NCBI GenBank assembly: GCA_051439505.1
Contig: JBFRWI010000153.1
Span: 1-19,792, forward strand
Reading direction: 5' to 3'
Source of the DNA: Hormoscilla sp.
GTDB taxonomy: Bacteria > Cyanobacteriota > Cyanobacteriia > Cyanobacteriales > Desertifilaceae
DNA length: 19,792 nt
A model generated the notes under the pieces. That model saw nothing but the letters and a program-made list of their open reading frames with translations, searched no databases and was not told where the DNA came from. This document shows, piece after piece, positions 2,786 through 19,792 of the stretch. Position 1 is the first letter of the stretch, and every line of letters starts with the position of its first letter. The position numbers and the translations under genes were made by a program.

Positions 2786-3958
2786 TTAACATCTTGCTAA
2801 AGCTACTTTTGGTCTCAATCTTGCCAAAACTTGCTTGAGTACCATTGCCGTCCAATCGATATCTGCTGTTGTAGTATCGCGCCCCAGGGTCAGGCGAATT
2901 CCACCCAAAGCGGCTGATTCGCTATATCCCATTGCTAGTAAGATGGGACTGGGAGATAGTTTGCCGCTGTGACAGGCGGAACCCGCACTGATGCCAATTC
3001 CTGCTAGGTTCATTTGCCGCACCAGGGTTTTCCCCGTGATGCTTTCCGTATCTGTCAGGCAAAAACTGACGTGGTGGGGGAGGCGGTGCAGGCGATCGCC
3101 CGTGGGCACTAAACCCTCTACATCTGATAATCTATCAAACAGGCGATCGCGCAACCCATACAATCTGGGCATCTCCACCGCCATTTCTGCTAACGCCAAT
3201 TCCGCCGCCACCCCAAACCCGGCAATTGTTGGCACGGCCTGAGTTCCAGAACGCAGTCCCCTCTCTTGTCCGCCACCACCCAATAACGGCATTAACTCTA
3301 CCCCCGGACGCACGTAAAGGGCACCTGCACCTTGAGGACCGTAAATCTTGTGACTAGACACAGACAGCAAATCTACTGGTAAACGCTGAACATCTATAGG
3401 CAAACGTCCCGCCACTTGCACGGCATCAGTATGAAAAAGCACTCTACTCCCCCTGCGAGAACGGAGAATATTCCCCAATAGCTCGATCGGTTGTAAGGTG
3501 CCGACTTCACTCTGTCCGTAGATAATCGACACTAACACTGTATTGGGTTGTAAAGCCTCTTCCAGATCTCTAGGATTGACCCGTCCTTGGCGATTCACTG
3601 GCAACCGCGTTACTTCCCACCCCTGCTGTTCTAGAAATAGCGCTGGCTGTGCGACAGCTGAATGCTCCACACTAGAAATAATCACGTGCTGGGCGGTTCT
3701 ATAGTGGCGGGTAACGCCCGTAATCGCTAAATTGTCAGCTTCAGTGCCACCAGCAGTGAAGATAATCGAGGATGAATCCGGCGCATTCAATAATTTAGCC
3801 ACCTTTATTCTGGCCTCTTCCACTACCGTTGCCGCCCTTTGCCCCCATTGATGTAAGCTAGAAGGATTGCCCCATCTTTGGGTGAGAACTGATTGCATCG
3901 CCGCGATCGCCTCTGGGCTTGGGGGAGTTGTAGCACTATAATCCAGATAGATTTGCAT
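2786..3958 (-). CDS. iscS: Cysteine desulfurase, IscS/NifS (group I) family
   Basis: IYLDYSATTP N-terminus, HTDAVQ, SSHKIYGPQG (PLP lysine) and SAGSACHS (catalytic Cys). Confidence 0.92.
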   Translation of the reverse strand: MQIYLDYSATTPPSPEAIAAMQSVLTQRWGNPSSLHQWGQRAATVVEEARIKVAKLLNAPDSSSIIFTAGGTEADNLAITGVTRHYRTAQHVIISSVEHSAVAQPALFLEQQGWEVTRLPVNRQGRVNPRDLEEALQPNTVLVSIIYGQSEVGTLQPIELLGNILRSRRGSRVLFHTDAVQVAGRLPIDVQRLPVDLLSVSSHKIYGPQGAGALYVRPGVELMPLLGGGGQERGLRSGTQAVPTIAGFGVAAELALAEMAVEMPRLYGLRDRLFDRLSDVEGLVPTGDRLHRLPHHVSFCLTDTESITGKTLVRQMNLAGIGISAGSACHSGKLSPSPILLAMGYSESAALGGIRLTLGRDTTTADIDWTAMVLKQVLARLRPKVALARC

Positions 3959-4025
3959 AAGTCTTGAGTCTATTACATGCCGTTAGGGAACGGACTTGTT
4001 TAAGGAAGTGGATAGGATTTTCTAC

Positions 4026-10522: not shown

Positions 10523-11449
10523 GTGTCCCATACGGTCTCACGTTCTCCTCTGTCAATCTGTACCTTCCTCCGCTCTCCGGCCCTGGAGCGGTCGGTGCTC
10601 CAATCTTTGAGTGCCGATCGCTATCAGGTCATCCCCTGCGCCGCCGAGCTGGAATTTTTCCGCGTGCTGTCCCAGTCCAAGCAGCAGATCGATTGCCTGA
10701 TTTTGCAAGAGGTGCCGGAGTTGCCTCAAATTGTCCATCAGCTGAGTCAACTACGTACCCTCCTACCAATGGTAGTGCTTTCGCGCTCGCTCACTAAAAA
10801 TTCTGCTAGGCATGCCACTGACGCGACCGATCGCTTGGGCGCAATTGACGATCGCTCTTCGACACCAGGATTATATGATAGTTACTATAGAACTGCTATC
10901 CGGGTGGAAACAGCTCAACTCGAAAAGATTCCTGACGCGATCGAACTGGCGATCGCCGAATTCCTCAAGCTCTCTGCTCTGGGTGTTGACCTGTCCGATA
11001 GTAAATATTCCTTAGATGCTCTGACTACCCAGAGCTTGTTAACAGTTCAGCAGCGGCGTTTAGCCGATAAGCTTAAGGAGCGACTGGGATATCTAGGCGT
11101 GTATTACAAAAGAGACCCCAAAAACTTCTTCCGCTATCTGCCACAGGCACAAAAGCGAGAGTTGCTAGGGAACCTGAAAGCGGATTATCGAGAAATTATT
11201 TTAAGTTATTTTGATGATGATAATAGTCTGAATCAAATAATTGATGAATTTGTTAATCTCTGTTTTTTTACGGATATTTCGGTTTCTCAAATTGTGGAAA
11301 TTCACATGGATTTAATGGATGAATTTGCCAAGCAATTACAGCTGGAAAATCGCAGTGAAGAGATCTTACTTGACTATCGCCTGACCTTAATTGATATCAT
11401 AGCTCATTTATGTGAAATGTATAGGCGATCGATTCCCAGAGAATCATAG
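10523..11449 (+). CDS. kaiA: Circadian clock protein KaiA (long form with N-terminal pseudo-receiver)
   Basis: QQRRLADKLKERLGYLGVYYKRDP...LLDYRLTLIDIIAHLCEMYRRSIPRE; GTG start. Confidence 0.97.
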   Translation: MSHTVSRSPLSICTFLRSPALERSVLQSLSADRYQVIPCAAELEFFRVLSQSKQQIDCLILQEVPELPQIVHQLSQLRTLLPMVVLSRSLTKNSARHATDATDRLGAIDDRSSTPGLYDSYYRTAIRVETAQLEKIPDAIELAIAEFLKLSALGVDLSDSKYSLDALTTQSLLTVQQRRLADKLKERLGYLGVYYKRDPKNFFRYLPQAQKRELLGNLKADYREIILSYFDDDNSLNQIIDEFVNLCFFTDISVSQIVEIHMDLMDEFAKQLQLENRSEEILLDYRLTLIDIIAHLCEMYRRSIPRES

Positions 11450-11509
11450 TTGGGGTGATTAGTTGGGCAAGAAATGTAGAGCGAGGAAAAAGGAGAAAAG
11501 AAAAAGGTT

Positions 11510-11824
11510 ATGAGCCCGCTAAAAAAAACATACATTCTCAAGCTGTACGTGGCGGGAAATACTCCCAACTCGGTACGGGCATTGAAAACGCTGAATGATA
11601 TCCTGGAACAGGAGTTTCAAGGGGTATACGCCCTGAAGGTAATTGACGTGCTGAAAAACCCTCAGCTGGCGGAAGAAGATAAGATATTAGCGACACCAAC
11701 CCTAGCGAAGATATTACCGCCACCGGTGCGGAAGATAATCGGGGATCTATCAGACCGAGAAAAGGTGCTGATTGGACTAGATCTATTGTATGATGAACTA
11801 CGAGAGGACGAACGCAATAGTTGA
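11510..11824 (+). CDS. kaiB: Circadian clock protein KaiB
   Basis: [23 protein letters not shown]...[23 protein letters not shown]. Confidence 0.99.
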
Positions 11825-11896
11825 ACGATCTCCGAAGGCAGCGGCAAGAGGATGACAAAAGATCTACCTGTGGAGAAAGGAGAATGATAAGAAGGA

Positions 11897-13450
11897 ATGA
11901 ATAAAGTTAAGAAAAATCAACAGCAGGAAAAAAAGGTTCTGACTGGCGTCAAAAAGATTCACACCCTGATAGAGGGCTTCGATGATATCAGTCATTCCGG
12001 TCTGCCAGTGGGTAGAAGCACCCTAGTCAGCGGCACATCTGGAACTGGGAAGACTTTATTGGCAGTTCAGTTTATCTATAATGGCATCATCCATTTTCAG
12101 GAACCGGGGGTGTTTGTCACTTTTGAAGAGTCCCCCACGGACATTATTACAAATGCTCAAAGTTTTAATTGGGATTTGCAACAATTAATTGATGAGGGTA
12201 AGCTGTTCATTCTGGATGCTTCTCCGGATCCAGAAGGACAGGATATTGTCGGGAATTTTGACCTGTCGGCCCTGATCGAACGGTTGCAATACGCCATTAG
12301 AAAATATAAGGCGAAGCGGGTGTCGATCGACTCGGTGACAGCTGTGTTTCAGCAGTATGACGCGGCGAGTGTGGTGCGCCGGGAAATATTTCGCCTGGTG
12401 GCACGCCTGAAACAAGTAGGGGTGACTACCATCATGACTACAGAACGGGAGGGGGAGTATGGACCAGTGGCCAGGTTTGGGGTGGAGGAGTTTGTTTCCG
12501 ATAATGTGGTGATCGTCCGCAATGTTTTGGAAGGGGAACGCCGACGCCGGACGATCGAGATCTTGAAGTTGCGGGGTACGACTCATATGAAAGGGGAGTA
12601 CCCCTTTACCATTACCAATGATGGCATAAATATTTTCCCACTGGGGGCCATGCGACTCACTCAACGTTCTTCCAATGTTCGGGTTTCCTCTGGGGTGAAA
12701 ACTCTCGACGAAATGTGTGGCGGCGGTTTCTTCAAGGATTCCATTATTCTGGCCACGGGGGCCACGGGTACGGGTAAGACCCTTTTGGTGAGTAAGTTCT
12801 TACAAAATGGCTGTACTCAGGGCGATCGGGTAATCCTGTTTGCCTACGAAGAGTCGCGGGCCCAACTGTTCCGCAATGCTTCTTCCTGGGGAATAGATTT
12901 TGAGGACCTAGAAGGCAAAGGATTGTTAAAACTCCTTTGTTCTTACCCGGAGTCAGCGGGGTTGGAAGACCACCTCCAGATGATTAAATCGGAGATTACT
13001 GAGTTTAAACCCTCTCGCATCGCGATCGACTCTCTGTCAGCTTTGGCCAGGGGAGTAAGTAACAATGCGTTTCGTCAGTTTGTGATTGGCGTCACGGGCT
13101 ATGCCAAGCAGGAGGAAATTACAGGCTTTTTCACCAATACCACCGACCAGTTCATGGGGTCTCATTCGATTACGGATTCTCATATTTCCACGATCACGGA
13201 TACAATTTTGATGTTGCAGTACGTCGAAATCAGAGGTGAAATGTCCCGCGCCCTCAATGTATTCAAAATGCGGGGTTCCTGGCACGATAAAGGCATCCGC
13301 GAGTATAGCATCAGCGCCAACGGTCCCGAAATTAAAGATTCCTTCCGCAACTATGAAGGGATTATCAGCGGTTCTCCTTCTAAGATATCTGTCGATGAAA
13401 GGAATGAACTCTCCCGCATTGTCAGAGGGGTACAGGGGAAAATTGATTAG
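11897..13450 (+). CDS. kaiC: Circadian clock protein KaiC
   Basis: Two RecA-like domains with GTSGTGKT and GATGTGKT P-loops, EE catalytic pairs, and the SHISTITD phosphosite motif. Confidence 0.99.
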   Translation: MNKVKKNQQQEKKVLTGVKKIHTLIEGFDDISHSGLPVGRSTLVSGTSGTGKTLLAVQFIYNGIIHFQEPGVFVTFEESPTDIITNAQSFNWDLQQLIDEGKLFILDASPDPEGQDIVGNFDLSALIERLQYAIRKYKAKRVSIDSVTAVFQQYDAASVVRREIFRLVARLKQVGVTTIMTTEREGEYGPVARFGVEEFVSDNVVIVRNVLEGERRRRTIEILKLRGTTHMKGEYPFTITNDGINIFPLGAMRLTQRSSNVRVSSGVKTLDEMCGGGFFKDSIILATGATGTGKTLLVSKFLQNGCTQGDRVILFAYEESRAQLFRNASSWGIDFEDLEGKGLLKLLCSYPESAGLEDHLQMIKSEITEFKPSRIAIDSLSALARGVSNNAFRQFVIGVTGYAKQEEITGFFTNTTDQFMGSHSITDSHISTITDTILMLQYVEIRGEMSRALNVFKMRGSWHDKGIREYSISANGPEIKDSFRNYEGIISGSPSKISVDERNELSRIVRGVQGKID

Positions 13451-18529: not shown

Positions 18530-18685
18530 GGCCTAAATCTTCTTATTCGATCTTTTTTACTATCTAGCATATCTCAATCATGTGAGTTACACTAACACTT
18601 TGTCTTTACCTCTGTCGTCGTACTTCATAATGTAGAGAAATGCTAGAGAACTTTCATAGATTTGTGCTTCTATAGAGTAACCAGG

Positions 18686-18882
18686 GGGTGTGGTCAAAAC
18701 CCGTTGATCGTTTCTGGGATATACCAGCTGTCGGATACCCTGTAGGGGCGCTAGCGCAGCGGCTGCGCAGCAGCTAGCATTCTGGCGACAAATTATGACC
18801 ATAGATGACAGATGTTCTCTCAGAATGCTTCGCCCGGCACCCCGCGATAATCTCCCCGTACCAACTACTTTTGACCACACCC
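18686..18882. mobile_element. 197-bp MITE with 14-bp TIRs and an 8-bp target-site duplication
   Basis: GGGTGTGGTCAAAA / TTTTGACCACACCC, with GTAACCAG at 18677-18684 and 18883-18890 (one extra G on the left). Contains a GTAGGGGCG..GCATTC / GAATGCTTCGCCC REP pair and an SDR insert. Confidence 0.88.
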
Positions 18883-18973
18883 GTAACCAGCATACTAAAA
18901 AACTGGTAATTTCCGGAAAATACCGCTCCTTAGGCGGTTGACGCGGTTCGGCTCCGCTCACCGACCACGACGC

Positions 18974-18997
18974 AAAAAAGCCACTCTTCTGCGTGGC
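18974..18997 (-). terminator. Intrinsic terminator-like hairpin closing the omegaRNA
   Basis: GCCAC-GCAGAAGA-GTGGC-TTTTTT on the minus strand. Confidence 0.55.
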
Positions 18998-19243
18998 CAG
19001 TGACTATTTTGCTGCCTTTCGGCTCTCCCTAAAAAGGGGTAAAGTTTGCCTCGGTCAAGTTAAAGGAGCTTTTTACATCTAACTCACAAGGGACCACTAA
19101 ATCCATTCGTTCCGTTCCTTAAAGCCAGACGACAGAGCTACGAGCTGGCGCTCACCCCTAGGTGTCATGACCCCCCTAACGTAGGTCTGATCCTGGACCT
19201 GCACGCTTGCATCTTCCTTTCGGAGATAATTCCAACAAAGGTC
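18974..19243 (-). ncRNA. Orphan HEARO / omegaRNA-like structured RNA (IscB/IsrB guide scaffold)
   Basis: Minus-strand motifs in canonical order: GACCT..AGGTC-CAG, CTACGTT, GTCATGACACC, GCCAGCTC..GCTCTGTC, TAAC.TGACCGAGGCAAACTTTACC, then a GAAA hairpin. Stems GTTAGGGGGG/CTCCTTTAAC and GTCTGGCTT/GAGTTAGAT can pair. Confidence 0.8.
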
Positions 19244-19366
19244 AGAAATTACCGGATTTTATGCAAGAGGAAGATAAAGCAATTGAGTTTGCTTTCATAG
19301 CAATAATACTAATATACAGTATCTGTTTGCCGAACCGCTAGCCCCGATCGCTGCTAAGTCTCCTGG

Positions 19367-19760
19367 CCCGCCTTCCCTGTCTCGTGGGAGCGCTATTCGC
19401 ACTACCCACGAGACAGGGAGGGTTCAAACCCCGCGTTACCAGGCGGTCCCCAGGTAACGAGGCTGAAGTTGGTTTTCAACCGACTGAAAGCAAAGCCTTA
19501 TGGAAAAAGTATTTTACCTTCGTTTTACCCTCGTTCCCTGGCTCCCGCCTGGGAACGAGGGAACGAGGCTCCGCCTCTAGTTGCGAATGGTGCAAGATAT
19601 GAGTTTCAACTGAAATATTGCAACTGTCGCAACAAGCCGCATCTGGTTCACACAGGGGCCTTGAGCAACGTGAGTTCGTAGTTCGAGATTGCTAGCGCTC
19701 CTGCGTCGCGCCGCTACGCTAACGTACCTCGCAACGCTGCGCGGTTCGTAGTTCGTAGTT
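19367..19760. repeat. Cluster of nested palindromic repeats
   Basis: Perfect 15-bp stem 19374-19388/19405-19419, GTTACCAGG/GTTCCC-type hairpins (19433-19461, 19530-19578), an SDR-like element at 19691-19723, and GTTCGTA heptamers. Confidence 0.8.
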
Positions 19761-19792
19761 GGGGATCTCCCGAACGCAATCATGCGGGTTTG

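Follow-up and report, generated by a model that had tools for sequence, protein, structure and literature searches.

The IscB-type omegaRNA encoded on the minus strand of the window, the whole 19,792-nucleotide stretch of Hormoscilla sp. DNA analyzed here, is almost certainly the cargo of a non-autonomous, multi-copy mobile element (MITE) derived from an IscB transposon. Mobilization of this element in the manner of IS607 is very probable, and the complete explanation, a gene-less multi-copy MITE of an IscB transposon with IS607-type ends, is considered likely. The transposon ends are a more unusual feature than the RNA that they carry.

The MITE and its iscB-bearing relatives

BLAST against the source genome gave sharp bounds for a 382-bp element at 18888-19269 on the minus strand, of which 18889-19269 is the gene-less, IscB-derived, omegaRNA-only unit with the CT dinucleotides of both junctions, defined by boundaries shared among copies. 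The original prediction had placed the RNA at 18974-19262, and the unit extends past both of these limits, from 19269 to 18889. The source genome contains 23 left ends and 18 right ends of the element; nine left/right pairs lie on one contig each, and most of the remaining ends run into contig ends. Only members of this family were returned when both ends were compared with the source genome by BLAST. The complete copies comprise one with iscB (on contig C2, 1551 bp) and eight without the gene (357-449 bp), and the window copy is 90-94% identical to its sister copies. In the gene-less copies, iscB is replaced just after its ribosome-binding site by a module specific to the MITE, which lies in the window at 18974-19024 (minus strand) and is composed of a GAAA hairpin (19023-19014) and an intrinsic terminator (18998-18974). 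At the threshold used, 15 such modules were found in the source genome, each directly behind the 3' end of an omegaRNA, with the stem kept and the loop variable. The iscB copy on C2 has no such module and diverges just after 19025. Some copies are damaged: the one on C39 lacks part of a helix, that on C221 is truncated, and those on C1, C5, C232, and C203 carry insertions. Short palindromic repeats are inserted in the omegaRNA of the copies on C1, C5, C17, C203, C222, and C232, at loop or junction positions in the cases that were checked.

Read along the minus strand, the element opens with the left CT core (19268-19269; AG in the IS607 orientation), which is present at all 23 left ends and is the presumed crossover site; its register was set by alignment to the right end of IS607. 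The 5' (P1) stem of the omegaRNA, identified by pairing and in the minimum free-energy fold, spans 19206-19267 and encloses a repeat hairpin and a GAAA hairpin. Three CCGG(A/T)AATT-like repeats phased at 10 bp (19224-19255, minus strand) are putative binding sites for a serine transposase and also form a hairpin in the RNA. The HEARO/IscB omegaRNA core recognized by Rfam model RF02033 occupies 19039-19228 and includes a local AGGUC/GACCU hairpin at 19183-19200, and the MITE-specific module comes next. Beyond it, a short genomic repeat at 18943-18966 is called a secondary insertion, based on its matches elsewhere in the genome and on an alignment of the eight full MITE copies, the repeat being absent or of another length in other copies. 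A small hairpin led by GTCAAC (18923-18942, minus strand) is kept in the MITE copies; by eye, it resembles the start of the Y1-type omegaRNA at two other loci (L068 and L079). The far transposon end (18889-18921, minus strand; 34 bp) is a 100% match to the C2 and C41 iscB element ends, contains the motif GAAATTACC at 18913-18905, and closes with the right CT core at 18890-18889. The G at 18888, which is host derived and follows all 18 right ends, completes a CTG target that is the predicted TAM of IscB. On the other side, the host flank at 19270-19285 is the would-be guide and matches its own excised site alone. Dense short repeats with 50-180 genomic matches fill the surroundings of the element (18650-18887 and 19345-19792), and the genes at 10523-13450 of the window are, as we take them from their translations, the clock genes kaiA, kaiB, and kaiC.

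Intact iscB genes of 421 amino acids are present on C2 (complete element) and on C41 (partly assembled element), with the same ends as the MITE. Because of these two iscB copies and the 23 left and 18 right ends, we regard the window element as a non-autonomous derivative that has a terminator of its own, and not as a domesticated regulator. The encoded proteins contain RuvC and HNH motifs and match NF040563 at 478 bits. Over the C-terminal 86 residues, identity to most other cyanobacterial IscBs is only 33-42%, compared with 60-66% over the rest of the protein; the C terminus of IscB is the region that reads the TAM. The copy on C41 (L015, C41 32209) is inserted in what appears from translation to be an alpha/beta-hydrolase gene.

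In four genomes of the same genus, six right ends were found, all of them from iscB elements that are either full length or internally deleted, so that the expansion of the MITE looks specific to the source genome among the genomes searched. The closest iscB relatives with the same ends are in Hormoscilla records (87-93%) and Arthrospira platensis (77-78%), and other omegaRNA-only derivatives have arisen separately in other lineages (L120, L294, and L199-L219). An autonomous element with the window-element ends was found neither in six metagenome matches and plasmids nor in the 61 genomes of the G061 family, two of which have the RNA end. None was found in the 401 genomes of the order either, where, among the matches listed, the far end occurs in at least five genomes and the places inspected were iscB elements or MITEs. 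No element combining an IS607 tnpA with the window-element ends was found in any set searched. Isolated left ends of 24-27 bp that are followed by unrelated DNA (L093-L096, in G001-G004), with one site common to G001 and G004, are likely deletion scars.

Identity, fold, and expression of the omegaRNA

The HEARO/omegaRNA in the window is a real RNA gene. At the gathering threshold Rfam gives no match anywhere in the window, and the match to RF02033 at 19039-19228 (minus strand; 72.2 bits, E = 2.7e-14) is below the 83-bit gathering score; the sister copy on C166 scores 84.9, above it. The deficit of the window copy is attributed to its replaced 5' stem, the 5' stem of the model being the part that does not align. 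There are 14 HEARO matches in the source genome, and a scaffold 92% identical to the window copy lies directly upstream of the 421-amino-acid iscB on C2. The four HEARO hallmark motifs of the original prediction are all at the minus-strand coordinates it had given, and both GAAA loops are present, as is the GCCAC/GTGGC hairpin with U6. Its assignment of an IscB-type omegaRNA that has its own terminator and no nuclease gene was upheld at the locus. Taken alone, the terminator-like site at 18998-18979 (minus strand) is not above chance, since the terminator scan expects 1.4 such sites per shuffle.

The 5' stem that had been proposed, GACCT (19239-19243) with AGGTC, did not hold: it is paired in only 60 of 85 cells across 17 aligned copies, and this GACCT is within a variable stretch. 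Instead, AGGTC pairs locally with the GACCT at 19183-19187 (83 of 85 cells in the 17 copies; helix 4 in the covariation analysis), and the closing stem is formed by CTTGCAT (19267-19261) and ATGCAAG (19212-19206), which are paired in 111 of 119 cells of the 17 copies and in the minimum free-energy fold. Covariation among 16 distinct copies was modest (six pairs, with 17 cells changed on both sides) and far above that of slid controls, in an analysis that leans in its own favor because the structure was derived from the window copy. Of 500 shuffles, none reached the cell count and 10 reached the pair count. In the long helix 90-100/201-211, pairing holds in 186 of 187 cells of the aligned copies. 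In folding energy, the window copy does not surpass shuffled sequences (z = 0.10).

The RNA had been described as an orphan, which is correct for the locus, where there is no nuclease gene, and incorrect for the genome, which has the 14 HEARO matches and the two intact iscB genes. A genome-wide search for iscB with a matching scaffold and for sister copies returned these two genes and more than 20 insertions of the element. Since both iscB genes have the same scaffold (92% identical), the suggestion that the RNA is a guide acting in trans is plausible as to its use, but not as to its being a specially maintained single copy. The suggestion of a domesticated regulatory RNA was not borne out; the locus is one of more than 20 mobile-element insertions, which are polymorphic between sister genomes.

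For the 22 flank-derived 16-nt guides, no second CTG-adjacent site within two mismatches was found in the source genome; as a control, 15% of 200 random 16-mers matched at two mismatches. Guides with no other CTG-adjacent site fit self-maintenance and not regulation. Hexamers resembling a -10 element, scored with a rough home-made matrix, were found upstream of 10 of 22 copies, compared with a genome background of 15% (p = 0.011); the difference from the right flanks (3 of 18) was not significant (p = 0.10). No sigma-70 consensus was found on the minus strand. RNA-library contigs from four studies cover 19011-19270 and two of them reach the MITE-only module, a weak indication of transcription that applies at the family level only. 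Their loose ends at 19269-19271 show other flanks, so that no RNA library can be tied to the window locus, and in these data (Logan contigs) start, end, strand, and level are not readable. Neighboring bins without coverage do not serve as a control, as the locus may be absent from the organisms concerned.

Target sites, ends, and the mobilizing enzyme

The insertion flanks show no target duplication and no preference beyond the terminal CTG, the next positions being random. Empty counterparts were found for 3 of the 16 distinct complete insertions among the loci compared. Two are of the form flank-CTG-flank, the C43 site in three genomes and the C180 site in one; the third is a diverged paralogue, 81% identical, which reads TTG. 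The insertion of the element is polymorphic between sister genomes. Because CT also forms the start of the left end, these sites are most simply explained by a CT core at both junctions together with a host G. For the window copy, no empty site turned up in the genomes searched, four of the same genus among them, and the downstream kinase gene was not found in these four. Among five other insertions of the source genome, empty sites were found for two and none for those on C166, C39, and C203; for the IS607-A family described below, none was found for six insertions. The element has hallmarks of IS607, with neither TIR nor TSD and with the same dinucleotide, CT, at both junctions and in the empty CTG target. 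Y1-type elements also have no TSD, but their target motif is 4-5 nt long, whereas the target here is 3 nt.

The ends of the window element have neither the GTCA/TGAC (GTCAA/TTGAC) stem nor the paired terminal hairpins of Y1-type iscB loci. The autocorrelation of the repeats peaks at 10, with values of 0.65 in the C166 copy and 0.52 in the IS607 end, and the repeat motif is also present at the ends of an IS607 tnpA-tnpB family (IS607-A) of the source genome, on C213, C1, and C147. Reverse-complemented, the RNA end matches the IS607-A right end in an ungapped, in-register alignment, with 28 of 45 identities in the window copy and up to 31 of 45 in others. When the last 45 nt of the C1 IS607-A were scanned over 12.9 million positions of the source genome, the top matches were the three IS607-A ends, followed by window-element RNA ends at all seven positions scoring 29-31/45 and at 7 of the 12 positions scoring 28/45, all in exact register; the matching copies are one family, so that these matches are not independent. 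A scan with the IS607-A end of G002 was less sharp, with an unrelated site at 29 and the elements at 27-28. At the far end, the resemblance to IS607-A is confined to a 13-bp motif shifted by 1 nt (19/40), and the best score obtained without gaps does not exceed that of control loci. The IS607-B, Y1, and XisF-like loci scored 22-26/45, and the Y1 loci, at 22-24/45, are at background. The core dinucleotide of the window element is AG (CT), compared with TG in IS607-A, and is not GG. However, GG is not universal among IS607 elements, because those of the IS607-A group (NF033518) in these genomes end with TG and others with AG.

The TnpA of IS607-A belongs to NF033518, and five intact copies are present in G002, a genome in which the far end of the window element was not found. 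In the source genome, the tnpA of IS607-A is interrupted by a premature stop on C213, carries a deletion on C1, and is absent from C147, and the 93%-complete assembly yielded no cognate transposase gene that is intact. Given these three broken copies, the helper may be unassembled or lost, or may be a related enzyme. At L092 (G004 C29), an IS607-A remnant is followed within a few bases of its right end by a remnant of the window-element RNA end. A stand-alone IS607-type tnpA lies, judged from translations, within a phycocyanin gene cluster (L104, C151 near 17700), and its left end resembles the GG-core end of the sister family described below, not that of the window element. G076 has 56 resolvase-domain matches, mostly apparent IS607 copies, many of them with internal stops.

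A sister IscB family in three genomes (G122-G124), with members that carry iscB (L050 and L196) and members that do not (L199, L202, L210, L213, and L219), begins with CC and ends with CCC, which on reversal gives the classic GG core and a GGG target. Its far end is identical to the first 19 bases (19/19) of the left end of an IS607 element, L270, in the same genome (G123). G123 has ten occurrences of this motif, of which three belong to known MITEs, five show the MITE continuation before the contig ends, one precedes tnpA, and one is unassigned. By sequence comparison, the sister family appears to be a cleaner case for IS607 ends than the window element. An intact IS607-type tnpA (L264, G124 C59, 1398-2022) stands head to head with a sister-family iscB element (2300 onward), about 280 bp from its RNA end, and is probably a neighboring element. 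A quick tree was built from 67 distinct near-full IscB rows, partial rows being left out; in it, both families fall in one clade of 18 rows with an SH-aLRT of 99; 14 of these rows have repeat-type ends and four (L056, L200, L204, and L207) have unclassified ends. Repeat ends were labeled by eye in 15 rows, as the automatic end classifier left many rows unassigned. Outside the main repeat-ended clade, L055 has a repeat-type omegaRNA 5' end (3750-4000); it is on a long branch, its contig ends after the gene, and end swapping is possible. A separate, well-supported IscB clade (L227, L235, L238, and L247) has another non-Y1 RNA end upstream of iscB, which consists of phased repeats, and its downstream end adjoins GCGATCG.

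Other enzymes could in principle have moved the element. It could have been mobilized by another recombinase with a 2-bp core, either a large serine recombinase acting on an attP-like circle junction or an IS110-type enzyme. A circle junction of the element would place inverted 9-bp motifs 14 bp on either side of CT, as in the attP of a large serine recombinase, and this symmetric spacing can be seen in the ends; IS110 has a CT core, and one XisF-like large serine recombinase is encoded in the source genome. However, no such motif is present near that gene (C94), the flanks have no conserved target beyond CTG, and the repeats are tandem and common to IS607. The attP reading was dropped because IS607 ends carry the motif whereas the surroundings of the XisF-like gene do not, and we consider this kind of enzyme very unlikely. 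It is similarly improbable that the element is an ordinary IS200/IS605-type (Y1 TnpA) non-autonomous IscB element or a PATE with unusual ends. As far as the accessible text of PMC4810608 describes them, all ISC elements are Y1 mobilized; the absence of a TSD with a fixed one-sided target would also be compatible with Y1, the source genome has four Y1_Tnp matches, and the RNA end can fold as a hairpin. Nevertheless, the target is too short, the stem and paired terminal hairpins of Y1-type loci are missing, and the similarity of the ends to sequences near Y1 genes is at background, whereas the sister family has all 19 terminal bases in common with an IS607 element. None of the four Y1_Tnp matches of the source genome has shared ends nearby above background, and a Y1 helper, having no ends in common with the element, was dropped as a candidate.

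A further question is whether the RNA of an IS607-type MITE still acts. It might now be a passenger that spread by transposition alone, its scaffold persisting because the 5' part is a transposon end and the copies are young. The damaged and interrupted copies (C39, C221, C1, C5, C232, and C203), the folding z-score, and the weak enrichment of -10-like hexamers agree with this, but the whole scaffold and the terminator are kept in all eight full MITEs when about 45 bp per end should suffice for transposition, the long helix is paired in all cells but one, and omegaRNA-only derivatives have arisen independently in other lineages (L120, L294, and L199-L219). We therefore judge the passenger explanation unlikely, though less so than the other enzymes. 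That the RNA is a domesticated regulator or a trans guide kept for the kinase/ATP-grasp operon is highly improbable. The omegaRNA has the orientation of the kinase gene and lies 359 bp upstream of where that gene starts, and its terminator could damp read-through into the operon; yet the element has more than 20 insertions dispersed in the genome, the window copy being 90-94% identical to its sister copies, the locus was not found in the four same-genus genomes, the guide has no other target, and co-orientation with host transcription is, in the accessible text of Meers 2023, a general bias of IscB elements.

The preferred reading remains an IS607-type MITE, the RNA of which is, in our estimate, somewhat more likely to be used in trans than to be idle. 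An IS607 serine transposase (TnpA-S), provided in trans, would bind the 10-bp-phased repeats and, by analogy with IS1535 and CboIStron, would excise or integrate the element through the 2-bp CT/AG core, leaving flank-CTG-flank. In this arrangement iscB and its RNA would run antisense to the direction of tnpB in IS607. A host promoter would read through the left junction and produce a flank-derived guide joined to the scaffold, ending at the element's own terminator, and the RNA would be loaded into IscB from a full-length copy (C2 or C41). IscB would then cut the excised allele (flank + CTG) and spare the filled allele (flank + CTC), much as a difference of one position protects the end of CboIStron itself, and the element would be regained through repair templated by a filled chromosome. 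As transposase and nuclease would both be supplied in trans, the MITE would borrow both.

Relation to known systems and significance

Stand-alone, trans-acting omegaRNAs have been described (Altae-Tran 2021 as summarized in PMC10691335), as have omegaRNA-bearing PATEs (Meers 2023, bioRxiv 10.1101/2023.03.14.532601), and the accessible text of the latter derives the guide of the IscB omegaRNA from the 5' flank through read-through from a host promoter. As far as these sources describe them, the window element resembles both in being a mobilized omegaRNA with neither nuclease nor transposase, in having effector-bearing copies in the same genome, and in its expected action in trans. The effector-less copies are dispersed, their insertion is polymorphic, and a cognate effector is encoded elsewhere in the genome. 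In contrast to both, its ends are phased repeats with a 2-bp core and not Y1 palindromes, and a dedicated terminator module stands in place of iscB. ISC elements share their ends with tnpB elements in antisense orientation (Kapitonov 2016, in the accessible text of PMC4810608). The stand-alone omegaRNA is thus an already known kind, and so is the antisense end-sharing of ISC with tnpB elements.

Compared with the ISC/IscB-HEARO elements as portrayed in the accessible literature, the window family likewise has an IscB with RuvC and HNH, an upstream HEARO core, no TSD, a fixed 3' target, and ends in common with a tnpB element in antisense orientation. It differs in that these common ends belong to an IS607 (serine) element and not to IS605, in that the 5' stem is CTTGCAT/ATGCAAG enclosing repeats and not GTCAA/TTGAC, in that the target is CTG and not GTGA, GTGG, or ATGA, and in the divergence of its C-terminal 86 residues described above. 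IS607 elements have been characterized by the absence of TIR and TSD, helically phased 9-bp repeats, and a 2-bp core (accessible text of PMC6188088). In CboIStron, 40 and 60 bp of the ends are needed for transposition, the core is part of the TAM, and filled and empty sites are told apart at one position (accessible text of PMC10690162). The window element shares with IS607, IS1535 (PMC6188088), and CboIStron (PMC10690162), within what these texts describe, the phased subterminal repeats, the scarless empty site, the lack of TIR and TSD, the identical junction dinucleotide, and the short target that includes the core. However, the known members of the IS607 family covered there carry TnpB and mostly have a GG core, whereas the window family carries IscB or only its RNA, has a CT/AG core, and encodes no transposase.

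In the accessible text of Meers 2023, serine resolvases are associated with TnpB and not with iscB. No report of an IscB with IS607 ends was found in the literature searched, on which the 2021 Science OMEGA paper and its supplement may bear, and PMC9956272 has nothing further on the matter; published surveys counted neighboring genes and would miss elements that borrow their transposase. It is reasonably likely that a cyanobacterial IscB lineage switched from Y1 to IS607 ends, with the 5' stem rebuilt around the repeats, the TAM-reading C terminus diverged to match the targets (CTG in the window family, CCC in its sister), and terminator-bearing RNA-only MITEs using IS607 TnpA and IscB in trans for restorative homing.

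If the proposed reading is true, the family would run counter to the exclusion of IscB from IS607 elements that has been reported, and IscB, like TnpB, would have partnered with both transposase chemistries. It would also follow that the Rfam HEARO model under-scores the IscB clade of the window element. The co-evolution of TAM and target would be directly testable, with short TAMs (CTG and CCC) predicted, and the clade would be a source of compact nucleases with 3-nt TAMs.
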